Made by a program: the position numbers and the translations under genes. Shown one piece after another: positions 12,112-44,558 of a stretch of 64,000 nucleotides of DNA. The stretch's first letter is position 1; each line of letters starts with the position of its first letter. Where the stretch lies: positions 58,350-122,349 of IMG/VR virus record IMGVR_UViG_3300036846_000555; one strand, 5' to 3'. This stretch comes from a virus. Under the pieces are notes generated by a model that did no database searches, had not been told where the DNA came from, and saw only the letters and a list, made by a program, of their open reading frames with translations.

Positions 12112-12116
12112 TGGTG

Positions 12117-12157
12117 CTCCTCGGTCGGTTGCACCGCGCAGGATAGCGCAGGTTGGG
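12117..12157 (-). promoter_or_regulatory. Variant promoter (TGCGC-TATCCT) plus CCGACCGAGGAG SD
   Basis: Resembles repeated motif on minus strand. Confidence 0.45.
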
Positions 12158-12189
12158 TACCCTCCGACCCTGTGCTAGTCTTCTGCACC

Positions 12190-12366
12190 ATGGCAACTGT
12201 GACCATACGGTTTGAGACCCCCGAGGATCTCGGCCGCAAACGTGTTGAACGAGAGGTGGCGGACGCGGTGCAGGCCGTCAAGTGGGCTGCTCACGGTGGA
12301 CCGCGAAGAGTGGTCGCCGACCCGGAGACCGTCACCTACACCATCGACTACAAGCAGGAGGACTAA
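12190..12366 (+). CDS. Hypothetical protein (58 aa)
   Basis: MATVTIRFETPEDLG...; TAATG coupling to next gene. Confidence 0.55.
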   Translation: MATVTIRFETPEDLGRKRVEREVADAVQAVKWAAHGGPRRVVADPETVTYTIDYKQED

Positions 12367-13244: not shown

Positions 13245-13265
13245 CCCTCAAGGACAGGAGACGTC

Positions 13266-13712
13266 ATGAAGTCACGTAGGTTCCGCAGGTCTGGTCATCC
13301 GCTGACGCAGGCGATCGACGCTTCGGTCGATTCCCGCCAGGCGCTCGGGCTGCCGGTCACGACTGGCCAGGTCACATCTGACCTGGTCGGCACCGTTCCC
13401 GCTGCGTTGATGCTGACTGAGTTCGGTCGGCTGGTCGGCGGCAGGGTTCGTGACCGGCTACGAGCACGCGGGGAGCTGGTCATCGACGAGACGACGTGGG
13501 AGCGCGCCACGGACGTTGACGTCACCGACCAGCAGTTCAAGGTGACCGTCGCGATCAAGCAGGAGAACGTCAACCGGGTCACTGCTCGCCTGAAGGCCGA
13601 GAAGGAGATCGAGAAGTTCCTCGACCGCCAGGCCGCCCGGCTGAGCCGTCCGGTGACGATGGGCGAGTTCGAAGCGCAGATCGACAAGATCTACGCCAAG
13701 CACGGGTTCTAA
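13266..13712 (+). CDS. Hypothetical protein
   Basis: SD AGGAG; operon context. Confidence 0.65.
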   Translation: MKSRRFRRSGHPLTQAIDASVDSRQALGLPVTTGQVTSDLVGTVPAALMLTEFGRLVGGRVRDRLRARGELVIDETTWERATDVDVTDQQFKVTVAIKQENVNRVTARLKAEKEIEKFLDRQAARLSRPVTMGEFEAQIDKIYAKHGF

Positions 13713-19875: not shown

Positions 19876-20098
19876 CCGCGTCGACGGCTCCCGCTTCTGC
19901 GCAGGCCACCGCGAGCTGTTCGCGTCCATCGCGACCGAGATCGACGACGGCCGCGACGCGCGCCGCCGGTCGCCCGAGCGCCGCCGCCGCACCCTGTTCA
20001 AGGAGTGCGACTGGGCAGGCTGCCCCGAGTGCGCCGCGCCGCGCGAGTCCTACTGCGCATACCACGTGAGGGTGCTGAGCGGTGCCTCTGCGACTTGA
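19844..20098 (+). CDS. Small Cys/His-rich protein
   Basis: Two CxxxxC...CxxH units; overlaps both terminase genes. Confidence 0.45.
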   Translation: MRCSSPRCPLDRVDGSRFCAGHRELFASIATEIDDGRDARRRSPERRRRTLFKECDWAGCPECAAPRESYCAYHVRVLSGASAT

Positions 20099-21839
20099 CC
20101 CGCGCGAGCACTTCGGGCTGACCGTCTCCGACGCGTTCCTGGACGCGCTGGAGTCAGACATCGCCGCGCATGAGCAGCGCCGCGCCAGCTTTCTGCAGTG
20201 GGCGATCAAGGTCCCCGAGACCCGCGGCCCACTGAACTTCGACCGCTGGCCGTTCCAGCGCGAGCTGTACGAGCAGGGGTTCGACGACAAGGAGGTCGTC
20301 GTCATGAAGGCCACGCAGCTCGGGATCTCCGCGTGGCTGGTCCGGTGGGCGCTGTGCTGGGCCGACATGCACGCTGCCCGCGTCCTGTACATCTTCCCCC
20401 GCGAGCGCCAGCTCCTGGACTTCTCTGACGGCCGCATCAAGCCGCTTATCTTGGGTGAGTACCTGAGGACTCGTGTGCCTGCCGCGTCGGTGCAGAACAA
20501 GACGCTGAAGTCCGTCGGCCTGGGGATCATCTACTTCCGCGGCTCCGAGGCCGAGGCCGGGCTGGAGTCGATTGACGCCGACGCGCTGTGCCTCGACGAG
20601 CACGACCTCCTGGTGCAGGCGCACATCCCGATCGCCGAGCGCCGCGTCGGCGGCCAGGACTCGCTCGGGCTGATCCGCCGGATCGGCTTCCCGACCATCA
20701 GCGACCACGGCATCCACAAGGAGTACAAGAAGACCGACCAGCGCGAGTGGACCGTCCGCTGCGAGTTCTGCGGCGAATGGCAGTCGCTGACGTGGGCTGA
20801 CAACGTCGACGTCGAGCGCGAGATCCGCGTGTGCCGCAAGTGCCGCAAGCCGCTCGACGTCGCCACCGGCGAGTGGGTCGCGACGCACCCGGACCGCAGC
20901 ACCCGCGGCTACCACATCACCAAGCTGATCCTGCCGCGCCCCGAGATCGTCAGCACGCTCGTCGCCGCCTCCCGCGAGCAGGTGGCCTACCAGCGCCAGA
21001 TCTTCTTCAACCGCGATCTCGGTGAGCCGTGGGAGGCCGAGGGCGCCCGGCTGACCCCCGCGATGATCGCCGCGGCGCAGCGCGGCTACGCGCAGCTCAC
21101 TGCCTACACCGGCACCAACCCGGTGATCATGGGCGTCGACGTCGCGTCGGTTCGCGCGCTGAACGTGTGGGTGACCGAGCAGGTGTCAGAGACGCAAGGC
21201 CGCGTCCTGTACCTCGGCCTGGTCGACAGCTTCGACGAGCTGGCCAAGCTCATGGACCGCTTCCGGGTGGTCATGGCCGGGATCGACCACCTGCCCGAGA
21301 ACCGGCTGGCGCAGGCGTTCGCGAACCGCTTCGCCGGACGGGTGTACATCATCAGCTACGGCACCGAGACTCAGCGCGACGTGCTCAGCGTCGACGATCA
21401 GCAGCGGCGCGCGTCGGTCCGGCGCACCGAGGCCATCGACGCCGCGCAGGAGCGCGTCCGCGCGCAGCGCGAGTATCTGCCGCAGGATCTCCCGACCGGG
21501 TTCGTGGAGCAGATGTGCGCCAACGTCCGCTCCGTCGAGCGCAACGACGTCGGCCGCGTCCAGGTGCGCTACCGCGCCGACGGCCCGGACGACTGGATGC
21601 AGGCGCTCACCTACGCCATCGTCGCGAACGAGTGCTGGTGGATCCGCCAGCAGGTTGATCACGAGGAGATCACCTCCATCGACGAGATGACCGAGCTGGG
21701 GTTCGAACGCTCGACGCTGCGCGACCCCGACTCGATGGAGTACTCGCCGGGCCGGTCCGATGGCGACTACCAGCTCCACGACGGCCAGGTCAACGGGAAC
21801 GGGTACGGGTACGACGATGGCTACGGCTGGGACGAATAG
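20082..21839 (+). CDS. Terminase large subunit, lambda GpA-like
   Basis: VVVMKATQLGIS, LCLDEHD, GFPT, CEFC/CRKC Zn ribbon, FNRDLGEPW, nuclease MGVDV. Confidence 0.9.
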   Translation: MPLRLDPREHFGLTVSDAFLDALESDIAAHEQRRASFLQWAIKVPETRGPLNFDRWPFQRELYEQGFDDKEVVVMKATQLGISAWLVRWALCWADMHAARVLYIFPRERQLLDFSDGRIKPLILGEYLRTRVPAASVQNKTLKSVGLGIIYFRGSEAEAGLESIDADALCLDEHDLLVQAHIPIAERRVGGQDSLGLIRRIGFPTISDHGIHKEYKKTDQREWTVRCEFCGEWQSLTWADNVDVEREIRVCRKCRKPLDVATGEWVATHPDRSTRGYHITKLILPRPEIVSTLVAASREQVAYQRQIFFNRDLGEPWEAEGARLTPAMIAAAQRGYAQLTAYTGTNPVIMGVDVASVRALNVWVTEQVSETQGRVLYLGLVDSFDELAKLMDRFRVVMAGIDHLPENRLAQAFANRFAGRVYIISYGTETQRDVLSVDDQQRRASVRRTEAIDAAQERVRAQREYLPQDLPTGFVEQMCANVRSVERNDVGRVQVRYRADGPDDWMQALTYAIVANECWWIRQQVDHEEITSIDEMTELGFERSTLRDPDSMEYSPGRSDGDYQLHDGQVNGNGYGYDDGYGWDE

Positions 21840-21847
21840 GCTTCCAT

Positions 21848-21910
21848 AAGCGCACGATGTGTGCTATCCTGTAGGTGGACCCGGAGAGGGTTCAGCTCCC
21901 GACCGAGGAG
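21848..21910 (+). promoter_or_regulatory. Dyad promoter-hairpin-SD cassette
   Basis: AGCGCACGATGTGTGC-TATCCT; TGGACCC/GGGTTCA stem; CCGACCGAGGAG. Confidence 0.8.
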
Positions 21911-29820: not shown

Positions 29821-30161
29821 GCCTGTCCTTCACCACGAGCCGCGACGGCGCCCGGCGAGCAACGGTCCGGCTCGACCACCGAGTCGGCCTGGAGCAGCTC
29901 GCGACGGCAGCGGCGCTGGCGCTGGACGAGGGCTACCTGGAGGGCGAGGATCTCGACGCGCGCGCGGCCCGCCTGACCAGGCGCGACATCGAGCGAGAGC
30001 TGCGCGACCGACTGCAGGCCGGTGGCGACGACGGCTTCCTGTTCGTCGGCGAGCGCAGCTTCATGGGCTACGAGCTGTTCGACGAGACCGTCGCAGGCGC
30101 CTGCCGTGCCCGCGTGCTGGCGCTGTGGCCCGAGCTGACCCCGACCGAGGAGACGACATGA
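29817..30161 (+). CDS. Hypothetical protein
   Basis: ATGA coupling. Confidence 0.6.
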   Translation: MSLSFTTSRDGARRATVRLDHRVGLEQLATAAALALDEGYLEGEDLDARAARLTRRDIERELRDRLQAGGDDGFLFVGERSFMGYELFDETVAGACRARVLALWPELTPTEETT

Positions 30162-30772
30162 CCATGACCACCACCGAGACACCACGCATCTGGATCGCCG
30201 ACCTGGCCGCCTACAACAACGGCGTGCTGCACGGCCGGTGGGTTGACGCCACCGACGCCGCCGAGCTGACCGAGGCCAAGGACCAGATCCTCGCCTCCAG
30301 CCCCGAGCCCGGCGCGGAGGAGTGGGCCATCCACGACTACGACGGCTTCGGCAGCGACCTGACCTACAAGCTCGGCGAGTACGCCAGCTTCGACACGATC
30401 GCGAAGCTCGGCGCGCTGATCGAGGAGTACGGCGACGAGTTCCTCGCCTACGTCTCCGCGGTCGAGCCCGCCCCCGAGGACATTGACGAGCGCAGCTTCC
30501 AGGAGGCCCGCCGCGGCGCCTGGGACAGCGAGGCCGACTGGGCCCGCGACCGCGTCGAGAGCCTCGGCTACGAGGGCGTCCAGCCCGGCGAGTACGTCCC
30601 CAAGGACGACCGCGGCTGGAGCAGCAGCGACGGCGCGATCGACGTGATCGACCTGCTGCTGAATCACCTTGACCTGGACATGGTCGCGCGCGACTGCAGC
30701 GCCAACGGCGAGGTGGACTTCGCGACCGTCAACGGCACCGTTTACGCCTTCGACCCGAACGCGGGTAGGTGA
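30158..30772 (+). CDS. ardA: ArdA antirestriction protein (type I RM DNA mimic)
   Basis: RIWIADLAAYNNGVLHGRWVD...EEWAIHDYDGF...LGEY; highly acidic. Confidence 0.9.
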   Translation: MTMTTTETPRIWIADLAAYNNGVLHGRWVDATDAAELTEAKDQILASSPEPGAEEWAIHDYDGFGSDLTYKLGEYASFDTIAKLGALIEEYGDEFLAYVSAVEPAPEDIDERSFQEARRGAWDSEADWARDRVESLGYEGVQPGEYVPKDDRGWSSSDGAIDVIDLLLNHLDLDMVARDCSANGEVDFATVNGTVYAFDPNAGR

Positions 30773-31983: not shown

Positions 31984-32150
31984 CCACGCACGTGTACGTG
32001 ACGGACGAGAGCACGCTCCTGTACGTGCTGGAGATCGGCGCTCCCGACGCCGCCGTCGTCGAGGACGTGCTGACCGGCAACATCGTCAAGATGAGAGCGT
32101 CGGCGCTGCGCGAGTGGCGCGTCGTCACCCCGATGGAGAGCGATGGCTGA
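31953..32150 (+). CDS. Hypothetical protein
   Basis: Overlaps portal start. Confidence 0.5.
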   Translation: MAVAERTRALATHVYVTDESTLLYVLEIGAPDAAVVEDVLTGNIVKMRASALREWRVVTPMESDG

Positions 32151-34191
32151 CTGGCTGAACCGGCTGCAGGAGGCCGCCGAGATCCGGACCGGCAAGAAGG
32201 TCGTCGACGCCGACTACGTCGAGCTGCTGGAGGCCTCAGACGTCGAGCGGCGCGCCATGCAGAAGGAGCTGGATCTCCTCGGCTGGTACGTGCTCGACTA
32301 TATAGGCGGGCAGCCTCAGGAGGTCAAGCCTCAGGAGCGCCGTCGGATGGCGGCGCAGGCGCGCATGGTGTGGGTGCAGGACCCGGTCGCTGGAGCCAAC
32401 GTCGAGCTGTCCTGCAACTTCATCTTCGGCCGCGGCGTCCCGAAGCCGAAGGCCGCCGACGAGAAGGTGCAGGAGGTCATCGACGAGGCGTGGGACGACT
32501 CGGACAACAAGGCGGTGCTGACCACCTACCCGGCGCAGGTGGCGCTCTGCACCGATCTCGTACTCCAGTCCAACCTGTTCCTGCTGTTCTTCCAGGGCGA
32601 CGACGGCAAGGTCAAGCTCGGCCTGCTCGACCACGACTCCGTCGAGGACGTCGTCCGCGACTCCAACAACCGGCTGCGGGTCCTGTACTACGTCGCCCGG
32701 CGCCGCACCTACGGCTGGGACTTCGACAACGACCGGCCGTCCATCCGGGCTCAGATGGACAGCCAGGATCCCAGCAAGCCGCGGGTCATGTACTACCAGT
32801 CGCTCGCCGCCACCGACTCCGAGACCGGCGAGCTGGACACCGAGGACAACCAGTGCCCGCCGACCAAGCTCGGCGACGGGCTCGTCTACCACATCGCCAT
32901 CAACCGCGGCTCCGAGCAGGTGTTCGGCGTCCCGGCGATGCGCCGCCTCGTCAAGTGGATGGCCGCCCTGAACGACTTCATGGCCGCCCGCGTCGACCTG
33001 ACGCAGGCCGCCGCCGCGTTCATCATGCGCCGGTCGGTGAAAGGCTCACCGCAGCAGGTGGCGAACATCGCCGCCAAGGCCATCTCCCGCCGGTCGAACC
33101 TCGCGGCGACGTCGATCGACGACCCGTCAATGGGCATGATCCAGCCGGGCCCGCGACCCGGCTCGATCCTGAACGACTCCGACGCGGTCACGACGCAGCC
33201 GTTCACCGTCCCGACGCAGGCGGCGCAGGCGGCGCAGGACGCGCAGATGATCCGCTCCCAGATCAGCGCCGCGACCTGGCCGCAGCACTACCTCGGCGAC
33301 CAGTCCAACGCGAACCTCGCGACCGCGACCGCGCTGGAGCTGCCGGTCGTCAAGAAGGTCGAAGCGTTCCAGGAGCTGTTCGAAGGCCTGTTCCGCACGT
33401 TCATCGACCGGTCCATCCAGCAGGCCGTCGACAACGGCACGCTGCCGACCGCGCTCACGCCCGAGGAGCGCGCCAGGCTCAAGTCAAAGAAGCCGGAGAA
33501 CCAGGTGCCGGGCGCGCCGGGGATCACGCCGCCCGCCGCTCCGATCCAGACCGAGCCGCCGTCGTCGCAGACCGAGCCGAGCACGAACGGTGCCGCGCCA
33601 ACCGCGCTCAGCGCGGGCTACGAGGGCCAGACCGAGGACGAGGAGGACACCGAGCGCGACCTGAGCTATGAGTTCTCGATGCCGAATCCGCTGAAGCGCC
33701 AGATGGCCGACCTGGTCAACTCGATCGCGAACATCGCGCGCACCTTCGACCCGAACAACACCAACGTCGAGCTGTCCCGCACGCTGCTGGGCGTCGCACT
33801 CGGCCAGGGTCTGGAGCTGGCCGACCCGGCCGCCGCCGTCGAGCGGATCCTGCCCGAGGGGTACGTCGACCCGATGCTCGCGGCGCAGATGCAGGCAGGC
33901 GGCGGCGGAGGTCCGCCACCGCCGCCGCCGCCGCTGATCCCGGACGAGCCGAATATGTTCGGGCCCGGCGGCCCGGCACCCGGCGAGGGTCCGACGCCCG
34001 GCCAGGGCCCGGACGGCGAGCAGAACCCGTACGGCGCGCAGGGCTTCAGCTCCGCATACCAGGGCAACCAGGGCCAGATCGGCGAGGCGTCCGCGCGCCA
34101 GGCGGAGCTGGAGGCGCTGCTGGAGCAGGAGCTGGGCGCGATCGTCGACGGGCTGCTGGCCGAGGCCAGCACGAACGGCGACGGGCACTAG
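32143..34191 (+). CDS. Portal protein
   Basis: 682 aa; DPVAGANVELSCNFIFGRGV, HIAINRGSEQVFGVP, WPQHYLGDQSNANLATATALELP...FQELFE; followed by MuF protein. Confidence 0.85.
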   Translation: MADWLNRLQEAAEIRTGKKVVDADYVELLEASDVERRAMQKELDLLGWYVLDYIGGQPQEVKPQERRRMAAQARMVWVQDPVAGANVELSCNFIFGRGVPKPKAADEKVQEVIDEAWDDSDNKAVLTTYPAQVALCTDLVLQSNLFLLFFQGDDGKVKLGLLDHDSVEDVVRDSNNRLRVLYYVARRRTYGWDFDNDRPSIRAQMDSQDPSKPRVMYYQSLAATDSETGELDTEDNQCPPTKLGDGLVYHIAINRGSEQVFGVPAMRRLVKWMAALNDFMAARVDLTQAAAAFIMRRSVKGSPQQVANIAAKAISRRSNLAATSIDDPSMGMIQPGPRPGSILNDSDAVTTQPFTVPTQAAQAAQDAQMIRSQISAATWPQHYLGDQSNANLATATALELPVVKKVEAFQELFEGLFRTFIDRSIQQAVDNGTLPTALTPEERARLKSKKPENQVPGAPGITPPAAPIQTEPPSSQTEPSTNGAAPTALSAGYEGQTEDEEDTERDLSYEFSMPNPLKRQMADLVNSIANIARTFDPNNTNVELSRTLLGVALGQGLELADPAAAVERILPEGYVDPMLAAQMQAGGGGGPPPPPPPLIPDEPNMFGPGGPAPGEGPTPGQGPDGEQNPYGAQGFSSAYQGNQGQIGEASARQAELEALLEQELGAIVDGLLAEASTNGDGH

Positions 34192-34229: not shown

Positions 34230-37200
34230 GTGGCGGTCCCCGACCAGCAGGCACCACCGCAGACGCATCCGCAGGTTCAGCGCCTGCTCGACGCTGCGCA
34301 GACCGGCGCGACCATCGCCGCCGCCGGTCAGGTCACGAAGGCGGCGACCGTCGGTCCGGGAATCGCGGTCGCGGCGCCAGCGGTCGCCGCGGGCAAGATC
34401 GTATCGGCGGCCGCCGAGCCGGTGGAGTTCGGCATCAAGGTCGCGCTCGCGCTCCGGATCCTGCGCCGCCTGTTCCGCGGCCACAAGATGGAGAGCGCGA
34501 GCTGGCTGGAGAACGAGCTGCGCCGCCGCTTCCCCGACGCCGACCCGGCCGTGATCCGCGCCGCGGTGCAACGCGAGATGACGTTCGAACAGGCGTTCCA
34601 ACGCAAGGCGCTGGCCCGCACCGAGACCGACATGCACGCCGCCGGGCAGCTCCCGACGCCGCGGGCGCGCGCCAAGCGTGCCGGGGAGATCATCGCCCGC
34701 GAGAAGCACTACAACGCGCTGCGCGAAAAGGCGCTGCTGAACCGCGCGGTCGCGCATGTCGAGAACGCCGGGGTCAAGGCCGTCTCACCGCAGGGCGCGA
34801 AGTGGGTGCTCGGCCAGCGCAAGAACCACACGCTCGGGTGCCTGGCGCTGGCGGGCAAGAACTGGCCGTGGGAAGTGCTGGACATGATTCCGCCGCCGCT
34901 GCACACCGGCTGTGGCTGCAGCCTTGCGCCGCTGAAGCCGGGCGACACGGTGCCGCCGGTGGCGCAGGCGCTGCGCGCCGCGCAGGCCGCCATGGCGCTG
35001 GAGGAGGCTGTCCGCAGCGTCGCTGACGCCGGGGAGATCAACGCCTACCTGGACGGCTGGCCGGTCCGGCCGAGCGTCGAGCGCGCGCTCATGCAGCTCA
35101 CCGAGGCCGACTACAAAGAAGCGCTTCATCCCCGTGGCCGCGGTGGCCGCTGGGTGCAGATCCTGAACAAGATCAAGGCCGCGAAGATGGACGACATCAC
35201 CGACGTCGAGGGCCACAGCGTCATGCGGCTCAAGGACGAGGGCTACAGCGTCCGCGTCGGCGCCGGGAACCGGGTCAGGACGCACGATCCGGAGGTGGTC
35301 GCTGACGCGATCGTGAAGCATCTGGACGAGCGGGCGAAGCTGGGCACGCCGGTGACGCTGGCGAACATGGACGACAACTTCCAGAAGTGGTTCAGCCCGC
35401 AGAAGCTGGACGGCGGCAAGGAGACCCATCCGAAGTCCGGCTACGACGTGCATGTCGGCAAGTGGCTGTCGGTCAAGCAGCCCGAGCCCGACGTCGACGG
35501 CCCGCCGATCTTCAAGGTGACCGACTACGGCGCGCACGCTGGCGAGCAGATGTTCCCGACGGATGCCGGGACGCAGCCGATCCGGGAGCTGTACCGCGGC
35601 ATGAGCATCGACGAGTGGAACCAAGCCGTCGAACGTGGGTACATCCAGTCAGACCGGCGCGGCGTGATCGGAAGCTGGGAGGGCACGAACGCCGGGATCG
35701 ACCCGCAGACGTCGCAGTCCTACCTGCCGCGCGGCGCGGAGTCGGTGATCGCGAAGATCGCCGTGCGGCCCGAGGATGGGTGGTTCGCCCGCAACGAGGA
35801 CGGTTACCTGCGCACACGCAACCGGGTCCCGATGAGCCAGGTGACGGCCGTCTCGCCCGTCCTGTACAAGGATCCCGACGAGGGCCTGTTCGTGCGGTCT
35901 GACTCAACCTCGGCTGCTAAACTCACAAAGGAAGCTAATGGACAACGAACAGCTCAAACAAGAGGCGCTGCTGGGAGCGGTGGACGAGCACGGGGAGCCA
36001 ACCTGGTTTCACTCGCCTCGCTCGATGCGTCCACCGACGCCGGATACAAGCGCTACACCGACGCCGTCCGAGCCAACCCCCACTCCGAGTACGTCACCCA
36101 GCCGTCCCAAGCAGAGCTAGGCGCCAAGCGGGTCTGGCTCTCGGACGACGGTCAGACCGGCGTCACCGTCTCGGCGGACGGCGAGGTCGGGAACCTGTTC
36201 GCCAACAACGACCAGGGCGCCGGAGGCGCGGCGCTTGATCACGCCGTCGCGAACGGCGGCACGTGGCTGAACTGCTTCGACGGGGCGCTCCCGAAGATCT
36301 ACCAGCGCCACGGGTTCACCGAGGTCGCGCGCCTGAAGTTCGACCCGGAGCACAAGCCTGAGGGCTGGGACATGGCGAGCCTGGACTCGCCCGACGTCGT
36401 GTTCATGGGCCACGGCGGCGAGCCGGTGCATCCGGTGCCGACGTTCACCGACTGGGACACTGCCGAGCGCGCCGTGCTGGAGCACATCGGGGCGCTGCAG
36501 GAGGCGCACTGGACCGAGTGGCTGCACCCCCGCGGCCGGGGTGGTGTCTGGGTGGACGCGATCCACCACGAGATCAAGGAGCCCAAGGCCGAGAAGCCGC
36601 ACGCGGAGTTCACCGGCGAGGACTTCGCCCGGGCGATGGACGGCTTCACGCACGGCGGGATCACCGCGGTGCGCGCGAACCGCACCAGTGTCCAGAACCT
36701 GTACGGCGAGGTGTGGCTGAACCTGCAGAAGCAGGGCGAGATCCGGCCGGTCGGGCTGGCGCGCGTGATCGTCAAGCCGCCCAACCACCGCGGCGAGCGT
36801 GTCGCGGAGCTGGCGAACATCTACCTGCACGAGGACGAGCAGGAGCACGGCTTCGGCCGGGCGTTCACCGACTACTTCCTCAAGACGCTGCGCGACGGCG
36901 GCGTGGACAAGGTCAACGTCGAGGCCGTCTCCGTCGGCGGCTACGCGTGGGCCCGGCGCGGCTTTCAGTGGACGGCCGACAAGAAGGCCGAGCAGCAGCG
37001 GATCGTCGCCGACGCCAAGACCGACGGGCGCTGGGCGGAGATCGCCCGGCGCACACCACCGGCGGCGCTGGCCGAGTTCGAAGGCAAGATCGAGCGCGGA
37101 GAGTTCTCCTCCGAGGCGGAGCTGGCCGCCTACGGCATCGACCAGGGATGGCGCGAGTCTGACCCGGCGACCGGCGCGAGCACCGGCGCGCGGATGTGGC

Positions 37201-38036
37201 TCGGCAAGCAGCTCATGCTCGGCTCGCGCTGGAAGGGATCACGGCCGGTCACCGTCACGGCCAGCCTGCAGGAGGCGCTCGACGAGCTGGAGCTGAGCGA
37301 GCGCGCCGAGGAGATCCGCCTGCTGTGGGATCCGGCCAAGCACGCGCGAGGCTGGCACGGGCACTTCGCCGAGATGCTCAAGCAGCTCCCGAAACCAGGC
37401 CTGCGCGGCCGCGGCGGCGGGCGGATCGAGGTGACCGACGGCCACCGCGTCACCCGCACCCGCCACGGCTTTGAGGTCACGCATCCCAGCGGCCACACCG
37501 AGACGGTCGCGACGGCGGAGGAGGCCGCCACGATGGTCCACGACCGCTACGAGTCCGCGCGGATGGAGGCCGAGGTCAAGGCAGAGCTGGCCACCTCCGC
37601 GATCGAACGCGAGACACGCAAGCAGCGCGAGCGCGAGCAGCGCAAGGCCGAGATCGCCAGCCGCACCTTCTACCGCTTCGAACCACCCGAGATCGCCCGC
37701 AGGATCGCGGAGACCGGCGAGATCTGGGGACTGCCCGGCACGCAGGGCCGCGGCACCACGGAGGTCCGCGCTCTGCCGGGCCGCCCCGACGCGAGCCAGA
37801 TCGCGTACGAACGCAGCCACAACGGCCGGGTGGTGGTCGAGTTCCACACCAACGTCGCGCCGGACAACCCGTACGGCGAAACGCACTTCTCATGGTCGCC
37901 CGAATCGTCCGCGCAGCGTCGCAACGAGGAGTCCTCCGGCGTCGTCCACGAGCTGAAGTTCGAACCCGAGACGACCAAGTACGGGCACGTGCCGGTGGCG
38001 AAGCTGCACGTCCACCACGTCCACCCCGGTAACTAA
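34230..38036 (+). CDS. MuF-like head morphogenesis polyvalent protein (MuF + ART-like + 2 GNAT + C-terminal toxin-like domain; 3 HPR motifs)
   Basis: MuF motif W...NHTLGC...G...PPPLHTGCGC; LYRGMS..E; CFDGALPKIYQRHGF..PDVVFM; EQEHGFG..GGYAWARRGF. Confidence 0.8.
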   Translation: MAVPDQQAPPQTHPQVQRLLDAAQTGATIAAAGQVTKAATVGPGIAVAAPAVAAGKIVSAAAEPVEFGIKVALALRILRRLFRGHKMESASWLENELRRRFPDADPAVIRAAVQREMTFEQAFQRKALARTETDMHAAGQLPTPRARAKRAGEIIAREKHYNALREKALLNRAVAHVENAGVKAVSPQGAKWVLGQRKNHTLGCLALAGKNWPWEVLDMIPPPLHTGCGCSLAPLKPGDTVPPVAQALRAAQAAMALEEAVRSVADAGEINAYLDGWPVRPSVERALMQLTEADYKEALHPRGRGGRWVQILNKIKAAKMDDITDVEGHSVMRLKDEGYSVRVGAGNRVRTHDPEVVADAIVKHLDERAKLGTPVTLANMDDNFQKWFSPQKLDGGKETHPKSGYDVHVGKWLSVKQPEPDVDGPPIFKVTDYGAHAGEQMFPTDAGTQPIRELYRGMSIDEWNQAVERGYIQSDRRGVIGSWEGTNAGIDPQTSQSYLPRGAESVIAKIAVRPEDGWFARNEDGYLRTRNRVPMSQVTAVSPVLYKDPDEGLFVRSDSTSAAKLTKEANGQRTAQTRGAAGSGGRARGANLVSLASLDASTDAGYKRYTDAVRANPHSEYVTQPSQAELGAKRVWLSDDGQTGVTVSADGEVGNLFANNDQGAGGAALDHAVANGGTWLNCFDGALPKIYQRHGFTEVARLKFDPEHKPEGWDMASLDSPDVVFMGHGGEPVHPVPTFTDWDTAERAVLEHIGALQEAHWTEWLHPRGRGGVWVDAIHHEIKEPKAEKPHAEFTGEDFARAMDGFTHGGITAVRANRTSVQNLYGEVWLNLQKQGEIRPVGLARVIVKPPNHRGERVAELANIYLHEDEQEHGFGRAFTDYFLKTLRDGGVDKVNVEAVSVGGYAWARRGFQWTADKKAEQQRIVADAKTDGRWAEIARRTPPAALAEFEGKIERGEFSSEAELAAYGIDQGWRESDPATGASTGARMWLGKQLMLGSRWKGSRPVTVTASLQEALDELELSERAEEIRLLWDPAKHARGWHGHFAEMLKQLPKPGLRGRGGGRIEVTDGHRVTRTRHGFEVTHPSGHTETVATAEEAATMVHDRYESARMEAEVKAELATSAIERETRKQREREQRKAEIASRTFYRFEPPEIARRIAETGEIWGLPGTQGRGTTEVRALPGRPDASQIAYERSHNGRVVVEFHTNVAPDNPYGETHFSWSPESSAQRRNEESSGVVHELKFEPETTKYGHVPVAKLHVHHVHPGN

Positions 38037-38052
38037 CGTCGTGCGCTAGAAT
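38032..38052 (+). promoter_or_regulatory. Dyad-family promoter overlapping MuF stop
   Basis: ACTAACGTCGTGCGC-TAGAAT; ATG 9 nt downstream. Confidence 0.6.
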
Positions 38053-38060
38053 TGGGTGAA

Positions 38061-38408
38061 ATGGCCAAACCATGGACAAGCGACCCGAACGCACCGGCGG
38101 TGCCTGACGAGTTCTTCCAGATGCGCCAGGTGGCCGTCCTGCCGCTCGGACCGGACTGGTTTGAAGGCCAGGGCGTGGCGATGAAGGAGGAGGAGATCGA
38201 GGACAACTGGCCGCTGCTGTACGGCACGATCCGCACCGACGCCGGAACGTTCATCGTGGTCGGCACGCCCGGCGCCGACAGCGTCGAAGTGTGGGCGTCC
38301 CGAGACATGACGCCGCAGGAGGCCGCCGACGAGCTGGAGGCGACACTGGAGCACGGCGCCGAGTCGACCGTGTTCGACAGCGACGCCGGATACTGGGGCG
38401 GGTCCTGA
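38061..38408 (+). CDS. Acidic hypothetical protein, candidate immunity protein (probably leaderless)
   Basis: Directly after MuF C-terminal domain, own promoter, coupled to next gene. Confidence 0.6.
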   Translation: MAKPWTSDPNAPAVPDEFFQMRQVAVLPLGPDWFEGQGVAMKEEEIEDNWPLLYGTIRTDAGTFIVVGTPGADSVEVWASRDMTPQEAADELEATLEHGAESTVFDSDAGYWGGS

Positions 38409-41400
38409 TGGACTGGGCGACCGCGGCGGCGATTGTCGCCGACGGGATGCCGAGCCTGTCCGATCCGCCCGACGCGCCCGGCGACGACTACGAGTTCTGG
38501 CAGCGAGTCAAGGCGCTCGTTGACAGCAACGGCAACGGCGAGCTGAGCGAGGCGTACCTGGAGGATCTCCACCCCCGCGATCGCAGTGGTAAGTGGATGG
38601 AGAAGCTGGGGCTGTCGCATCTGCGCGAGGTCGGCGGAGCGCCCCGCGACGAGCTGATGGGCAGGACGCCGAAGGACATCGACTACGTCGCGGCCGAGAC
38701 GCCGGAGCGGATCAAGCAGGCAGTCGAGCAGGCAGGCGGAAAGGCCGAGGAGCTGATGGTCCGCGACCGGCTGGTCGGCGTCCGCGCCACGCATCCCGAC
38801 CTGCCGCCCGACGGCGTCGAGATCGTCCCGCCGCGCATCGAGCAGTCCACCGGCGCCAGCCGTCACGACTTCACCATCGTCCCGCACCCCGGCCTGGACG
38901 GCTCAGCCACACCCGAGCGGATGCTCGCCGACGACGCGCAGCGCCGCGACTTCACCGTCAACGCGCTGTACCGCGACCCCGTGACCGGCACGCTGACCGA
39001 CCCGACCGGCCGCGGTGAGCAGGACGCGCGCAACCGGGTGCTGCACATGGTCCACGACACCAGCTTCCAGGAGGATCCGCTGCGGATGCTGCGCGGCGCA
39101 CGGTTCGTCTCCCAGCACGGGCTGGAGCCCGACGCCGAGACGCTGGCGGCGATGCGCCGCGACTCCGGCGGTATGACCGCGCTGACCAACAAGGGCGTCT
39201 CCGGCACCGTCCAGACCGAGCTGGGCAAGCTGCTGATGGGCGACAGCCCGGGCAAGGCGCTGCGCGTCATGCGCGACACCGGAATGTTCCAGACGCTGCT
39301 GCCCGAGCTGGCGCCGATGGTCGGATTTGATCAACGTTCGCCCTACCACGAGCACGTGCTTGACGAGCACACGTTCAACGTCATCGACGAGCTGGCGCGG
39401 ATGGGCGCCAGCCACGACGCGCGGCTGGCGGCGCTGTTCCACGACTCGGGCAAGCCGCTGACCGCCAACCTCAAGCCGGGCACCGACACGTTCCGCTTCC
39501 ACTCCCACCCCGAGCACGGCGATCACGCCGACGTCGGCGCCGACATCGCGCGCAGCACCCTGAACCGCCTGAACTACCCGGCCGACACGATCAACCACGT
39601 CACCGGGCTCGTCCGCGATCACATGCTCACCGCCGTCGAGAAGCCGACGCCGGTCAAGGCGCGACGTCTGCGCGCCGCGCACTCCGACCGGTTCCTGACC
39701 GACCTGCTGGACCACAAGCAGGCCGACATGGAGGGCCATGGCGAAGCGATCGCCAAGAGCCTGGAGGGCGTCCACAAGCTACGCGGCCTGCTGGCCGAGA
39801 ACGCCACGGCGCCGCGGTCGCTCAAGGATCTGAACGTGACCGGCAGCGACCTGATCGCCAACGGCATGGAGCCCGGCCCGCGAATGGGCGCCGTGCTGCG
39901 CCAGCTCCTCACCGAGGTGGTGGTCGACCCGACCCTGAACCGCCACGAATGGCTGCTGCACCGCGCCGAACGCCTGGCGGCCACGCCGGTGCAGGAGGCC
40001 GAGCTGGAGGAGGCCAAGAGCATCTACGAGGAGGTGCTCCACCCCCGCGACAGGCTGGGCCGCTGGATGCTCAAGCGCGGCTACAACGTCCATTTCGAGC
40101 AGGCCGACAAGCCGTCGGCGACCCGCAAGAGCAAGACGATCACCGTCCGCGGGCCGACGCCCGAGCACCAGTACGACGCGCTGCTGAACGCCGGGGAGGG
40201 GCTCACCGGCGTCTTCCCGAAGGGCCCGCCGCGGCCGATCGAACGCGCCGCGATGGTCAACGCGGCCCGGCCGACACGCGTCGAGCAGCGGCTGCGGACC
40301 ATCGACAAGATCGCCACCCGCGCGCACGCGGGCCAGACCGACAAGTCCCAGCGCCCGTACATCGACCACGTCCACGCGGTCGCCGACTCGGTCGGGCCCG
40401 AGGCGCGTCCCGTTGCGCTGATGCACGACGCGCTGGAGGACACGCACCTCACCGAGCGCGACCTGGAGCCGGTCCTCAGCCCCGACGAGCTGGACGCGGT
40501 CAAGCTGCTGACCCGCCCGCACAGCCCCGACTACAACTACGACGACTACATCGACCGGATCGCCAACAAGACCGGCAAGGCCGGGGAGCTGGCGCGCGAG
40601 GTCAAGCGCGCCGACCTGCAGCACAACCTGGGGCGGCTCGGCAACCTGGACGCCAAGACGCAGGCGCGGCTGCGCCCCAAGTACGAGGACGCGCTCCGGC
40701 GCCTGGCGCGCACGCCGCACGTGTTCGAACAGGAGGGCGCGCCGGATAACCTCTCCGGGCTCAGCGCCGAGCAGGTCGAAGCCAACCTCCGCAGCTTCTA
40801 CCAGGGCAGCCTCAAGTCACCCGACCACCACACCGACCTGGCGTGGTACGACATCCAGCACGCCCTGATCGACAAGACGGCCAAGGAGCACGGCATCGAC
40901 CCGGTCACGTGGGCGGCGATGATCTCGGCGACGTCGCCGCAGCTCGCGTGGGACTTCACCACCAAGGCCGGGGTGTTCAAACGGCCGAACATGGACCTGG
41001 CCGAGAACGCGCTGCGGCTCGCGCGCCGCTACCCCGACGAGCCCGCGCCCAAGCTGGTCGACCGGCTGCTGAAGGCGTCGGAGGGCAAGAAGGGCCCGAG
41101 CGAGGTGGGCGGTCTCGGCGGGTCGGTCGAGAACGCGATCAGGATCTACCGCGGCGAGGATCCCGACAAGGTGCTCAACGCGCCGAAGACCCGCAGCTTC
41201 TACAACAACCTCGTCTGGCCCGAGCGCAGCACCACGGTCACCGTCGACGCGCACATGGCGCGCGCCGCGATGGGGATCGTCGAGAAGAAGGGCTACGCGC
41301 GCGCCGACAAGGCCATCGACGTCAAGGCCAAGGGCAGCGGCTACACGTGGGTGGCGGACATCGTCACCAAGCTCGCTGACGAGTACCACGTCCGGCCGCA

Positions 41401-41497
41401 CGAGATGCAGGCGGCCATCTGGATGGAGCGCAAACGCCAGTCCGACGCGCGCGAGGCTGCCGAGAAGGCCGCCAAGAAGGCAGCTAAAAGCGCATGA
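38408..41497 (+). CDS. Polyvalent protein: class II CCA-adding/poly(A)-type nucleotidyltransferase + HD, RelA/SpoT-type small alarmone hydrolase HD, C-terminal DUF7178-like domain; 2 HPR motifs
   Basis: VGGAPRD..G..PKDID, RRDFTVNA, EDPLRMLR, ALFHDSGKP; AHAGQTDK..PYIDH...MHDALED...VKRADLQHN; WY...SATSPQ...KTRSFYNN...VTVDAH. Confidence 0.88.
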   Translation: MDWATAAAIVADGMPSLSDPPDAPGDDYEFWQRVKALVDSNGNGELSEAYLEDLHPRDRSGKWMEKLGLSHLREVGGAPRDELMGRTPKDIDYVAAETPERIKQAVEQAGGKAEELMVRDRLVGVRATHPDLPPDGVEIVPPRIEQSTGASRHDFTIVPHPGLDGSATPERMLADDAQRRDFTVNALYRDPVTGTLTDPTGRGEQDARNRVLHMVHDTSFQEDPLRMLRGARFVSQHGLEPDAETLAAMRRDSGGMTALTNKGVSGTVQTELGKLLMGDSPGKALRVMRDTGMFQTLLPELAPMVGFDQRSPYHEHVLDEHTFNVIDELARMGASHDARLAALFHDSGKPLTANLKPGTDTFRFHSHPEHGDHADVGADIARSTLNRLNYPADTINHVTGLVRDHMLTAVEKPTPVKARRLRAAHSDRFLTDLLDHKQADMEGHGEAIAKSLEGVHKLRGLLAENATAPRSLKDLNVTGSDLIANGMEPGPRMGAVLRQLLTEVVVDPTLNRHEWLLHRAERLAATPVQEAELEEAKSIYEEVLHPRDRLGRWMLKRGYNVHFEQADKPSATRKSKTITVRGPTPEHQYDALLNAGEGLTGVFPKGPPRPIERAAMVNAARPTRVEQRLRTIDKIATRAHAGQTDKSQRPYIDHVHAVADSVGPEARPVALMHDALEDTHLTERDLEPVLSPDELDAVKLLTRPHSPDYNYDDYIDRIANKTGKAGELAREVKRADLQHNLGRLGNLDAKTQARLRPKYEDALRRLARTPHVFEQEGAPDNLSGLSAEQVEANLRSFYQGSLKSPDHHTDLAWYDIQHALIDKTAKEHGIDPVTWAAMISATSPQLAWDFTTKAGVFKRPNMDLAENALRLARRYPDEPAPKLVDRLLKASEGKKGPSEVGGLGGSVENAIRIYRGEDPDKVLNAPKTRSFYNNLVWPERSTTVTVDAHMARAAMGIVEKKGYARADKAIDVKAKGSGYTWVADIVTKLADEYHVRPHEMQAAIWMERKRQSDAREAAEKAAKKAAKSA

Positions 41498-41510
41498 TGT
41501 GTGCTACGAT
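41487..41510 (+). promoter_or_regulatory. Dyad promoter overlapping the stop of the CCA polyprotein
   Basis: AAAGCGCATGATGTGTGC-TACGAT. Confidence 0.7.
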
Positions 41511-41524
41511 ATGTGTGGAATGAC

Positions 41525-43651
41525 ATGATCGACCCGACACGACAGCCCCTCACCGTCGACGACGGCCCCCTTGACCTGGAGCCGCCGGACGACGAGCTGC
41601 AGGAGTGGGTGTCCGGCGGAGGTCTCGACGACGTCGTTGACGGTCTGATCGCCGCCAAGGACGTGCAAGAGGCCAGCTACGCCGAAGAGCTTCACCCCCG
41701 TGGCAGGGGTGGAAAGTGGATTCGCAAGCTCGGCGGGCCAGCGCGCGAGATGAGCGGAGACGAGTGGGCCGACTTCAAGGACAGGGCGCGCGCCGACCCG
41801 TTCTCTCACGTTCACCCCGGCGACGACGCCGACCCGATCGTCAACGCGCTGCACCAGATCGACAGCGGCTGGACGATGAAGATGTCCAAGAACCGCGACG
41901 AGCTGCCGACCGGCAGCCTGCCGTTCGGCGTCGAGGGCGTCACCCGCTTCGACAAGCAGGTCGGTCCCGGCGAGACGCCCGACTCGCTGGTGCTCCACAT
42001 GCGCCAGAAGGAAGGCGGCGGGCTGGAGGTCATCAACGCGGGCCACGGGTCGATGGTCTGGGACCACATGATCGCCACGCCCGAGATGCGCGCTGACGAG
42101 GAGCGAGTGTGGAAAGAGGGCCAGGCCCAGATCGCGGCCCAGCAGGCCGAGCGCGAACGCGAACGCGACGAGCAGGGACGCAAACAGGCTCAGACCATCG
42201 CCGCGATCGGACCGGCGGTCACCAGCGGCAACACCGAGGCGCTGCGCGCCGCACTGGGAGGCCACAGCATGAGCGGGGCTGTCGGGCTCCTGGCCGCCGC
42301 CGGACTTCAGCATCGCGAGCGTCTCACCGACGCGAACGAGAAGAGCCAGATCGACATCCTTCGCGGCGAGCATGGTGAGACCGTGAAGATCGTGGGTCGG
42401 GCGCCGGAGAAGGACTGGTTCAAGGAGATGGAGGACACGGTCGACCAGGCGCTGGACCCCAACGGGCAGATCGACGACCGCCTCGTCACGCAGGCAGCGA
42501 CCGCGCTCCGTCCCGAGGGCGACCGGCGCCCCGACGATCCGGAGGGAGCGGCAGCGTGGCGCGCCCGGCGCGACGCGCTCGTCCAGCGGCTGGCATCCCA
42601 GCACTACACCTGGGTCGGCCGGGCCGAATCGCCCCAGGCCTACCCTGACGTCGGCCTGTGGGCCACCCTGCAAGGCGAGGACGGCAACCAGTACTGGGTG
42701 GACTGGGGCGGCAACCTGCAATCGGCCACCAAGCATGCGCAGGGCGACTCCGAGGCCGTCGGGGACCGAGCCGTGATCCGCGGGCGACGCGACGACCGGC
42801 GGCTGACAGAGGAGCAGAGGCGCGGAGGCGTCACCGATGTGCGGATCACGCCCAACCCGCAGGGCGGCAACCGCACCCGGCTACCGGACGGCCAGGCCCC
42901 GAAGACCGTCGGTGAGCTGCTGATCGACACGCTCGGCCGCGCCGACGAGCTGGGACGGAAGTACGACACGGGCGTCAGCGTGCAGGCCGTCGTCCACGAC
43001 GTCGTTCCCGACGGTTCCGCAGCCGTCCACGAATGGAACGGCACGATCTCGATCGACGAGCGCTACCTCGATGACATCAAGAAGTACCTGGACACCCGCG
43101 CGCTCGTGGCCAAGCACGCCGAGCACGGCATATCGCCGATCAGCGACCGGGAGCACCTGGACTTCTACAACGCCCTGGAGATCCTGCAGCACGAGATCAA
43201 CCACGGCGTCGGCGTCAACGGCGGCATCGACACCAAGAACTACCAGGGGCTCGGCAAGAACGTCGAAGAGGGGCTCACCGAGGAGACCGCGCGCCTGGAC
43301 GTCGCCGACTGGCTGCGCTCCTACGGCATGACCGACGTGCTCGCCGCGGTCAAACGCAACCCGGACGATTGGCGCGTTCAGGGCACCTACTTCGACTACC
43401 GCACGCAGCTCAAGAAGCTCATGGACGACGCGGGCCTGAACGACGAGCAGCGGCGAGCGAAGCTCCGCCAGATGAAGTTCCAGATGACCCCGAACCAGCA
43501 GTACGCGGAGATCATCCGGCTGGCGCAGGTCAAGCGGCCGAACGTCACCGACCTCGGTGCTGCGCTGCCGTCGCCCGGCCTGCCCGCCCGGCTGGAGTTC
43601 CAGCCGGTGGTCAACCCCGACCTGTCCGACATCCGCGAGGAGGTGAGGTAA
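41525..43651 (+). CDS. Polyvalent protein with HPR motif and C-terminal zincin metallopeptidase
   Basis: VQEASYAEELHPRGRGGKW; ILQHEINHG...VEEGLTE; start could be 41513-41525. Confidence 0.75.
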   Translation: MIDPTRQPLTVDDGPLDLEPPDDELQEWVSGGGLDDVVDGLIAAKDVQEASYAEELHPRGRGGKWIRKLGGPAREMSGDEWADFKDRARADPFSHVHPGDDADPIVNALHQIDSGWTMKMSKNRDELPTGSLPFGVEGVTRFDKQVGPGETPDSLVLHMRQKEGGGLEVINAGHGSMVWDHMIATPEMRADEERVWKEGQAQIAAQQAERERERDEQGRKQAQTIAAIGPAVTSGNTEALRAALGGHSMSGAVGLLAAAGLQHRERLTDANEKSQIDILRGEHGETVKIVGRAPEKDWFKEMEDTVDQALDPNGQIDDRLVTQAATALRPEGDRRPDDPEGAAAWRARRDALVQRLASQHYTWVGRAESPQAYPDVGLWATLQGEDGNQYWVDWGGNLQSATKHAQGDSEAVGDRAVIRGRRDDRRLTEEQRRGGVTDVRITPNPQGGNRTRLPDGQAPKTVGELLIDTLGRADELGRKYDTGVSVQAVVHDVVPDGSAAVHEWNGTISIDERYLDDIKKYLDTRALVAKHAEHGISPISDREHLDFYNALEILQHEINHGVGVNGGIDTKNYQGLGKNVEEGLTEETARLDVADWLRSYGMTDVLAAVKRNPDDWRVQGTYFDYRTQLKKLMDDAGLNDEQRRAKLRQMKFQMTPNQQYAEIIRLAQVKRPNVTDLGAALPSPGLPARLEFQPVVNPDLSDIREEVR

Positions 43652-43925: not shown

Positions 43926-44558
43926 GTGCCAGACGTGAGCTTGAACGGGCGCCTGACCGCCAGCGAGCTGTCGCCGATCGCGGGCGGCGTGCTCGCCCAC
44001 GACGCCGCCGCCGCGTGGAACGCCATGAACGTCGAATGCCGACGCAACGGCGTCGAGCTGCGCCCCAACGGATCGAAGTCCAGCTACCGCACCTACGCCC
44101 AGCAGCAGGAGCTGTGGAACCTGTACGTGTCCGGACGCGGCAGCCTCGCCGCGCACCCCGGCACGTCGAACCACGGCTGGGGTCTGGCCGTCGACCTCGC
44201 CACGCACGAGATGCGCGCAATGCTCGACCGCGTCGGCGACAAGTACGGCTGGAGCAAGCGCACGTCAGACGCCCAGTCGGAGTGGTGGCACATCGCCTGG
44301 CGCACCGGCTCATGGCGCGGACCCGACCCCGGACCGTATGGTCCCAGCACACCACCCCCCACACCCCTACCAGAAGGAGCCGCGATGGCGGATCTCGTCG
44401 CCGTCCTCAAAGACAACAAGGCCATCGAACTGTTCGTGATGGACAAGAACGGCACCGTCTGGCACGCCTGGCAGACCGCCCCAAACGGCGGCTGGGCGGG
44501 CGCCCAAGCGGGCAAACGCAACGCCGCCTGGTACTCGCTGGGCGCGCCGGGCAAATGA
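43926..44558 (+). CDS. Endolysin 1: M15 (VanY-like) Zn peptidase + C-terminal lectin-blade module
   Basis: SYRTYAQQ...AAHPGTSNHGWGLAVD...EWWHI; Pro linker; 57-aa module. Confidence 0.88.
   Translation: MPDVSLNGRLTASELSPIAGGVLAHDAAAAWNAMNVECRRNGVELRPNGSKSSYRTYAQQQELWNLYVSGRGSLAAHPGTSNHGWGLAVDLATHEMRAMLDRVGDKYGWSKRTSDAQSEWWHIAWRTGSWRGPDPGPYGPSTPPPTPLPEGAAMADLVAVLKDNKAIELFVMDKNGTVWHAWQTAPNGGWAGAQAGKRNAAWYSLGAPGK

Follow-up and report, generated by a model that had tools for sequence, protein, structure and literature searches.

Polyvalent proteins of phages combine unrelated enzymatic domains in one chain, are encoded next to packaging genes and have shuffled orthologues, and they are predicted to be delivered with the DNA and processed into separate units, a published concept (Iyer et al. 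2017, PMC5512222). MuF polymorphic toxins consist of a portal-adjacent N-terminal anchor and variable C-terminal effectors, and they are associated with Aph1-family hydrolases (PMC5576092, PMC10083569, PMC12226406). Immunity to MuF-Apk2 toxins is conferred by Aph1 (PMC10083569, PMC12226406), and MuF/gp7 binds the portal, with co-injection proposed (PMC10083569; PMC5576092). In this study, we analyzed an open reading frame (ORF) of 1029 amino acids (aa) in a virus sequence from IMG/VR (record IMGVR_UViG_3300036846_000555, positions 58,350 to 122,349). This 64,000-nucleotide (nt) stretch, hereafter the window, is the final 64 kb of a 122,349-bp contig, and coordinates are window positions unless marked as genome positions. 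The ORF encodes a putative CCA-adding nucleotidyltransferase (NTase) with an HD domain, an Aph1-like small alarmone hydrolase (SAH) and a DUF7178 module with a glycosylase-like fold. With confidence that is about even, we read it as a polyvalent cargo polyprotein of a MuF-like anchored effector array, which would be packaged, cut and injected, with its enzymes acting independently.

The locus shares with polyvalent proteins the unrelated enzymatic domains in one chain, the neighboring packaging gene, the shuffled orthologues, and the predicted delivery with the DNA and processing into units. The criterion of polyvalent cargo is at least two unrelated effector domains per chain, and four enzymatic domains were found here. 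In contrast, no MPTase autoprotease was seen; instead, junctions of the form LxE[AS]...LHPRxRxGxW separate the modules. With MuF toxins, the locus shares the portal-adjacent N-terminal anchor, the variable C-terminal effectors and the association with the Aph1 family. However, the anchor here is MuF-like by fold only, with Phage_Mu_F unmatched; the Aph1-like domain is cargo rather than a separate immunity gene, and no (p)ppApp synthetase was found; and the phage here looks lytic and large, whereas theirs are small temperate prophages. CCA enzymes, phosphohydrolases and glycosylases are not mentioned as cargo in the main texts of PMC5512222 and Jamet et al. (PMC5576092), and a literature search for the junction motif returned only irrelevant matches. 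An earlier note on this DNA had known of no description of the fusion, and the architecture is indeed absent from the main texts of the two surveys and from the motif search. Judged from these sources, the class is a known one (polyvalent or MuF-type cargo), and the domain set and junction motif appear to be undescribed.

Domain organization of the chain

The ORF (P0001) starts with the ATG at 38408 and ends with the stop codon at 41495–41497. This ATG shares bases with the TGA that ends a 118-aa ORF immediately before it (TGATG), and homologues share the start Met, both in agreement with the start that the earlier note had given. In contrast, the end placed by that note at 40720 is wrong: the ORF runs 777 nt further to 41497, and the final 259 residues had been cut off. 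The note had described a CCA enzyme, an HD domain and an alarmone hydrolase in one chain. All the motifs it quoted are present in the translation and its domain assignments are confirmed, but the chain was incomplete, the fourth module, DUF7178, having been overlooked. Likewise, the HPR module, taken to be single, occurs twice in the chain (aa 55 and aa 545) and seven times in the genome. The parts of the chain are as follows.

38408..41497, + strand: whole ORF (P0001), 1029 aa, with leader, junction, CCA-type NTase/HD, junction, Aph1-like hydrolase and DUF7178
38408..38542, + strand: N-terminal leader, aa 1–45
38543..38596, + strand: junction motif 1, LSEA-YLED-LHPRDRSGKW, aa 46–63, with a candidate prohead-protease site ahead of the HPR motif
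38630..39043, + strand: class II nucleotidyltransferase head, aa 75–212, with GGAPRD, DID and RRDFTVNA (PF01743, 8.7e-19)
39209..39316, + strand: neck/RNA-binding segment, aa 268–303 (PF12627, 6.7e-8)
39362..39664, + strand: HD phosphohydrolase domain of the CCA-type enzyme, aa 319–419, with H321, H345-D346 and H405 (PF01966, 4.8e-8)
39818..39961, + strand: tRNA nucleotidyltransferase tail (tRNA_NucTran2_2), aa 471–518 (PF13735, 2.2e-7)
40004..40066, + strand: junction motif 2, LEEA-KSIYEEV-LHPRDRLGRW, aa 533–553
40274..40732, + strand: Aph1-type small alarmone hydrolase, aa 623–775 (7SMG, 7.6e-12; phrog_990, 4.3e-28)
40754..41425, + strand: DUF7178, aa 783–1006, all-alpha HhH-GPD glycosylase-like fold in the model, with invariant K927 and D947 (PF23802, 3.6e-20)

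Four Pfam domains of the nucleotidyltransferase module exceed their curated cut-offs, namely the head (PF01743, 68.5 bits against 23), neck (PF12627, 32.6 against 22), HD (PF01966, 33.7 against 22) and tail (PF13735, 31.4 against 27), and the module matches the tRNA nucleotidyltransferase family phrog_2244 at 9.5e-53. Conservation was scored over 22 homologues of the CCA module and 18 of the hydrolase module, at 44–78% identity. The motif A residues G76, G77, R80, D81, D90 and D92 are kept in 21 of the 22 sequences, and R179-R180-D181 of motif B, together with D198, G201, G203 and D206, in all 22. Motif D, EDPLRMLRGARF at aa 222–233, lies just 5′ of the neck segment; its E222 is kept in 19/22 and its D223 and R226 in 22/22. 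Additionally, the HD residues H321, H345, D346, G348, K349 and H405 are present in every sequence (22/22). Among NCBIfam models, the actinobacterial CCA enzyme TIGR02692 scores highest (138.7 bits against a cut-off of 438.8), followed by the E. coli CCA/repair model NF008137 (124.8 against 451) and PcnB (88.2 against 305.65), so that no equivalog cut-off is reached. Because of this rank order and the accompanying HD and tail domains, we infer a class II enzyme of the CCA type, an assignment below equivalog level. Compared with E. coli Cca and the tRNA_CCA_actino enzymes, the head-neck-HD order is the same, and motifs A–D and the HD residues are intact; in contrast, the equivalog scores are far below the cut-offs, and the enzyme here lies inside a 1029-aa chain with a leader, junctions and two further enzymes.

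The hydrolase module reaches 19.2 bits against Pfam HD_4, under the cut-off of 27.2 (E 0.0011). Its best match in the Protein Data Bank (PDB) is the (p)ppApp hydrolase Aph1 (7SMG, 7.6e-12 over 135 aa, segment aa 32–166); SpoT/Rel hydrolase domains, such as the A. baumannii SpoT hydrolase (5.7e-8), and other small alarmone hydrolases score markedly worse. The catalytic residues H640, H654, H673-D674, E677-D678, D736 and N740 are found in 18/18 sequences. D645, R743 and Y759 align with D24, R119 and Y134 of Aph1, each again in all 18; in Aph1, D24 and R119 confer (p)ppApp specificity, and Y134 contacts the pyrophosphate (PMC10083569). Thus, Aph1 of Bacteroides caccae and the module here have in common the HD and ED catalytic motifs and these three counterparts, whereas a junction/linker is fused N-terminally and DUF7178 C-terminally here, and the HD_4 score is below the cut-off. 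Because the catalytic and specificity residues are essentially invariant, the CCA-HD and hydrolase modules look active.

An exhaustive profile search placed DUF7178 in 1136 representative clusters, which are overwhelmingly viral, and a literature search for DUF7178/PF23802 returned zero papers. We modeled the domain with AlphaFold (AF2) from a 56-sequence alignment; a 44-sequence set was used for long DUF7178 proteins. The model is all-alpha, with a predicted local distance difference test (pLDDT) score of 93.8. In Foldseek, HhH-GPD DNA glycosylases are the only consistent matches (probability 0.94–0.98). In VIA-align, ranks 1–22 all belong to the HhH-GPD superfamily (Z 11.0 to 5.8), and the next match has Z 4.8. 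The top match is Tm1821 Ogg (3n0u; Z 11.0, root-mean-square deviation 4.4 over 179 aa), and further matches are AGOG, MagIII, Mag1, hOGG1, QNG1 (queuine salvage), EndoIII, MutY and AlkA. K927 and D947, which are 20 residues apart in G-P-K-x-R-S-F-Y-N-N ... V-T-x-D-x-H, are invariant in the 56 sequences. D947 is aligned with D147 of MjOgg in a sub-threshold profile match only (E 1.6, the best of the PDB profile search), with the Lys offset by one residue, and Pfam HhH-GPD does not match DUF7178. As shown by the model, DUF7178 belongs to the HhH-GPD fold, which it shares with the glycosylases (Ogg, AGOG, EndoIII, MagIII, AlkA) and QNG1/DUF2419. The Lys-(20 aa)-Asp arrangement within G.K....(V/T).D.H resembles the HhH-GPD catalytic pair. 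In contrast to these glycosylases, DUF7178 has no significant sequence match and no Fe-S cluster motif and is nearly all viral. It is probably a candidate glycosylase of the HhH-GPD type with an invariant Lys/Asp pair, for which the chemistry is predicted from the fold and the pair.

Cargo array and junction motifs

The ORF lies in a portal-adjacent cargo array that spans 34230–43651, with the following genes around it.

32143..34191, + strand: portal protein (phrog_10963, 2e-28)
34230..38036, + strand: 1268-aa cargo protein with a MuF-like N-terminal anchor (PPPLHTGCGC), a weak GNAT-like match, and two canonical junctions plus one degenerate junction
38052..38408, + strand: 118-aa ORF, translationally coupled to the 1029-aa ORF (TGATG overlap); no family match in Pfam or PHROGs
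41501..43651, + strand: 716-aa cargo protein whose N-terminus is leader-like and which has a single junction motif; no known family in Pfam or PHROGs

The motif E-x-L-H-P-R-x-R-x-G-(K/R)-W occurs in all three large proteins of the array, and the genome holds seven copies. Judged from 77 distinct instances in lineage members and further DUF7178 proteins, the junction core consists of an aromatic residue at −5, E at −3, L at −1, HPR, G at +6, K/R at +7 and W/F at +8. A site of the type [LVIM]xE[AS] starts 7–13 residues 5′ of HPR in 90 of 129 motifs (59 lineage proteins), where approximately 3% would be expected from site density. Across the 3013 aa of the three cargo proteins, the same site is scarce, with 8 occurrences, of which 5 are at junctions. 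The resulting composite junction, LxE[AS]-x5-7-LHPRxRxGxW, delimits the modules. T4-type prohead proteases cleave after L-x-E and also trim internal proteins. In this genome, the major capsid protein carries LLE↓A and LEE↓A directly before its HK97-like region, and a 501-aa scaffold-like protein encoded beside the capsid gene is rich in LxE-type sites; this putative protease/scaffold protein matches no Pfam or PHROG family. The conserved protease-type sites suggest that the chain may be cut into separate enzymes.

A 476-aa peptidoglycan-binding protein (genome 20166–21596) has FEQLHPRGRGGKW near its N-terminus, and the motif thereby extends beyond the portal-adjacent array.

The N-terminal ~290 residues of the 1268-aa protein constitute an anchor shared by ~30 proteins, in which the linked cargo varies: GNAT, Zeta toxin and NUDIX, 2H phosphoesterase, ADP-ribosyltransferase (ART) and cytidylate kinase. 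The anchor is joined directly to CCA-HD in P0014, P0017, P0018 and P0021 and to SAH-DUF7178 in P0038. Its PPPLHTGCGC motif is reminiscent of MuF, and in BFVD the anchor model retrieves proteins labeled "phage head morphogenesis domain", "MuF-like" or "minor capsid", some of them fused to an ART or a Zeta toxin. Against the PDB, Foldseek matched the anchor model to designed helical bundles only. Similarly, the leader of P0001 recurs N-terminally on separately encoded cargo proteins with differing cargo (P0002–P0010, P0012, P0013, P0015, P0020, P0023, P0034, P0036 and P0037). Furthermore, DUF7178 is fused to Phage_portal, to Phage_Mu_F and to an ART in other phages. The earlier note had called the chain virion-type. 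Its gene context agrees (the portal, the MuF-like anchor fold, the anchor fusions of relatives and the fusions of DUF7178 to portal and Mu_F domains); presence in the virion itself is predicted from this context.

A 17-bp palindrome, AGCRCAC-N3-GTGYGCT, occurs 15 times in the window at no more than 2 mismatches, against 2.2 expected. It is promoter-like and heads many small accessory genes, and the cargo array may have its own regulation. Other palindrome sites lie, for example, at 21849, 22612, 24559, 26474, 26961 and 53167.

Relatives and module shuffling

Approximately 12 metagenomic relatives have the full architecture of P0001, at 55–70% identity and on ~120-kb contigs. A megablast search of 50,697 phage records, with the ORF and its surroundings (18 kb) as the query, gave zero matches, and no cultured relative with the whole fusion was found in this set, from which very near records may be missing; the protein-level matches cover at most 47% of the chain. 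The CCA-HD to SAH order is kept in all full-length relatives and in contig L005, where the gene boundary lies elsewhere and the module order is unchanged. Among relatives, the modules have been reshuffled independently.

One 583-aa protein (P0013) was considered as a natural, split, CCA-only form and was rejected, because tblastn shows the rest in shifted frames, as in a frameshift or assembly artefact. In the metagenome contig L004 from ENA, the C-terminal half of an orthologue is spread over three frames (11650–13300), which points either to gene decay or to an error of assembly or reading frame.

We sampled six cultured lineages that bear the hydrolase: the Aeromonas T4-like phages, Seunavirus 4MG, Streptomyces phage Satis, Rhodococcus phage Peregrin, Pakpunavirus and a Paraglaciecola virus. 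A CCA enzyme is present in two of the six and adjacent in one. The adjacent pair is that of the Aeromonas T4-like phages (Ceceduovirus, CC2 gp108 and gp110), in which both enzyme types occur in the same order as here, within 1.7 kb and 200 nt apart, and the CC2-type hydrolase is 32% identical to the module here. In contrast, the Ceceduovirus enzymes are separate small genes in a nucleotide-metabolism/early region; their NTase annotation lacks an HD domain, and neither junction motifs nor DUF7178 are present. In 4MG, the only one of the five non-Aeromonas lineages with a CCA enzyme, this enzyme is encoded 37 kb from the hydrolase.

In Pseudomonas phage vB_PaeM_C2-10_Ab1 (Pakpunavirus), an SAH-like gene has a phosphoesterase and an RNA ligase less than 3 kb away, and in Paraglaciecola Antarctic GD virus 1, the neighbors of the SAH-like gene are another member of the RelA/SpoT family and an RNA phosphodiesterase/ligase. 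The two neighborhoods independently hint that phage SAHs are linked to RNA-end repair. The cultured Rhodococcus phage Peregrin (133 kb) encodes a 149-aa SAH-like "hypothetical" protein (71870–72319) that is flanked by the large terminase/HNH genes on one side and by a 654-aa protein on the other; this setting is a head-gene neighborhood, like that of the array here.

Proposed mechanism

The cargo polyprotein reading builds on what was observed: which domains are present, active sites that are intact and conserved, the genes around the ORF, the module shuffling and the junction statistics. The cassettes would each be introduced by [LVIM]xE[AS], with LHPRxRxG(K/R)(W/F) following 7–13 residues on. 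In the proposed sequence of events, the protein would be produced alongside the head genes and loaded into the procapsid via the N-terminal leader and/or the HPR motifs. A prohead protease would then cut at the LxE sites, LSE48↓A and LEE535↓A, to yield two ~54-kDa enzymes, one a CCA-adding NTase with an HD phosphatase and the other an Aph1-type adenosine 3′-pyrophosphohydrolase joined to an HhH-GPD-like glycosylase. Finally, the enzymes would enter the cell with the DNA and work independently in early counter-defence or host conditioning. CCA-HD would restore tRNA 3′ ends. The hydrolase would take the 3′-pyrophosphate off adenosine substrates, that is, (p)ppApp produced by toxins of the FaRel/Apk/Tas type and possibly tRNA pyrophosphorylated at A76, and DUF7178 may excise a base from DNA or from a nucleotide.

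Several points weigh against this reading. Packaging, cleavage, timing, substrates and biological role are predictions made from the genes of an uncultured phage. The T4-type prohead protease profile (Peptidase_S77) has no match in the genome, and LxE is a low-information motif; because no T4-type prohead protease family was detected, cleavage is presented as a prediction. Moreover, Phage_Mu_F (PF04233) matches nothing in the whole genome, the anchor model is of mid confidence (pLDDT 70.5), and its BFVD matches lie at E 5e-4 (best 5.5e-4) to 5e-2 with TM 0.3–0.5. The 1029-aa ORF itself has no anchor, and on the contig, more than 50 kb separates the cargo array from the genes for capsid, scaffold and tail. 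Furthermore, a copy of the palindrome at 41489–41505 covers both the stop codon of the 1029-aa ORF and the GTG with which the 716-aa ORF begins, and a palindrome half-site with TGCGCTAGAAT, extended −10-like, lies at ~38040–38052, 5′ of the 118-aa ORF. Because these promoter-like elements flank the ORF, late expression is not established.

Alternative explanations

The earlier note had all three activities converging on damaged tRNA ends, in a dedicated, pre-packaged tRNA 3′-end repair kit. The hydrolase would strip the 3′-pyrophosphate placed at A76 by toxSAS enzymes (CapRel, PhRel, FaRel2), the HD domain would remove 2′,3′-cyclic or 3′ phosphates, and the NTase would rebuild CCA. We regard such a kit, with every activity directed at the same damaged tRNA, as unlikely. 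Its literature premise holds, as the SAHs MESH1 and ATfaRel restore aminoacylation of pyrophosphorylated tRNA (bioRxiv 10.1101/2021.04.30.441581). The SAH PaSpo of phage SSU5 neutralizes toxSAS, and CapRel is common in Actinobacteria (PMC9712102). Additionally, pyrophosphorylated A76 is an adenosine 3′-pyrophosphate, which would suit the adenosine-specific pocket of an Aph1-type enzyme. The constant order of CCA-HD and then SAH in full-length relatives and L005 and the gene pair in the unrelated Aeromonas T4-like phages are also in its favor. However, removal of the pyrophosphate leaves CCA intact, and there is therefore no need for the CCA enzyme and the hydrolase to act one after the other. 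The glycosylase-like fourth domain does not fit a role at tRNA ends, and the hydrolase is Aph1-like and keeps the residues of (p)ppApp specificity; the word "tRNA" appears nowhere in the Aph1 paper (PMC10083569). Moreover, the modules shuffle independently, with CCA-HD and SAH-DUF7178 found apart on other anchors, and the protease-type sites suggest separate enzymes. The synteny of close relatives is not independent evidence, and the cultured lineages described above pair the two enzymes in two cases of six, with 4MG, at 37 kb, the only such case beyond Aeromonas. Collectively, these results do not bear out the convergence on tRNA ends.

A role at tRNA ends or against toxSAS is plausible, though we think it rather improbable. 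In a broader form, a large actinophage-like lineage would preload its capsid with translation-rescue enzymes as LxE-HPR polyproteins and so disarm tRNA-end abortive infection before gene expression, a proposal that we consider doubtful. The targets would be CapRel, PhRel, FaRel2 and MenT/AbiE-type systems, and the enzymes a CCA-adding/3′-phosphatase and an A76-stripping adenosine 3′-pyrophosphohydrolase; this assignment is likewise tentative and has little probability in our estimate.

It is also not very probable that the modules are ordinary, unpackaged intracellular enzymes fused by chance, with a proximity to the portal that is historical. In that case, the CCA enzyme would serve tRNA maturation or turnover in infection, and the hydrolase would damp (p)ppApp/(p)ppGpp signaling. 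Free-standing CCA enzymes and SAH-like "metal-dependent phosphohydrolases" are common in large phages, with the SAH domain in 316 records (PMC7824862; PMC12846349), and the promoter-like elements that flank the ORF are compatible with such enzymes. The sole tRNA gene of the genome, tRNA-Glu(CTC) (genome 16440–16513), ends in ...GCC followed by T and does not encode a full CCA, which lends this explanation weak support. However, one tRNA hardly warrants a CCA enzyme, and the host must own one. In addition, the junction motifs, the common leader, the anchor fusions of relatives and the fusions of DUF7178 to portal and MuF domains would be left unexplained.

Far less probable is that the Aph1-like module provides self-immunity against a (p)ppApp-making toxin of the same phage, as in the MuF-Apk2/IapK/Aph1 prophage cassettes, although Aph1 protects from MuF-Apk2 toxins (PMC10083569, PMC12226406) and the best phage matches of the module are pneumococcal prophage Aph1 genes (1e-14). 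A phage-borne RelA/SpoT synthetase was rejected: the RelA_SpoT profile (PF04607) gave zero candidates in the 99%-complete genome, even at E ≤ 1, and Pfam and PDB searches with the 937-aa protein described below found nothing beyond a Zeta toxin domain and no RelA/SpoT synthetase.

That the NTase is instead a poly(A) polymerase or another RNA-tailing enzyme that marks host or phage RNA is highly improbable, since, although E. coli poly(A) polymerase tops its near-tied PDB sequence matches (6e-15, marginally over CCA enzymes at 1.5e-13) and the EDxxR motif, common to both enzyme types, does not discriminate, NCBIfam ranks both CCA models over PcnB, the HD and tRNA_NucTran2_2 domains go with CCA enzymes and not with PcnB, and phrog_2244 is a tRNA nucleotidyltransferase family.

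Genome context

The contig, an IMG/VR record of an uncultured virus, has a guanine-cytosine content of 68.7% and a CheckV completeness of 99%. It carries tailed-phage genes for a large terminase, portal, tape measure, baseplate, tail fibre, HK97-type capsid protein and endolysins.

20082-21839: large terminase (phrog_675, 3e-80)

The closest cultured terminases are SPO1-like, at an identity of only ~28%. The source is probably a ~122-kb high-GC (guanine-cytosine) myophage lineage with an actinobacterial host.

Further genes were observed around the array and elsewhere on the contig. A 215-aa ORF at 30125–30772, 1.4 kb 5′ of the portal gene, matches an anti-restriction family (phrog_2059, 2.1e-25). 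Downstream of the array, 43926–44558 encodes a VanY-type D-Ala-D-Ala carboxypeptidase (1.3e-12), and in contigs L004 and L005, lysins are likewise found just 3′ of the arrays. A recombination pair, consisting of a RecT-like annealing protein and an exonuclease, is encoded on the minus strand at 6108–8244. Finally, a 937-aa protein (genome 10672–13485) has a Zeta toxin/AAA_33 kinase domain (3.1e-22) and a match to a "minor head protein" phrog; it is probably a further cargo protein.

Implications

Three leads stand apart from the packaging question. In the arrangement found here, the (p)ppApp hydrolase of the Aph1 type takes the place of an offensive cargo module and not that of a toxin-linked immunity gene. 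DUF7178 provides the glycosylase-fold lead. Moreover, the junction motif is a cassette-boundary marker in this cargo polyprotein lineage and could help to find and dissect such proteins. If the chain is packaged, it would be the first case found of a tRNA repair enzyme and an alarmone/3′-pyrophosphate hydrolase as virion cargo, and it would represent a pre-emptive answer of the phage to translation-targeting abortive infection.

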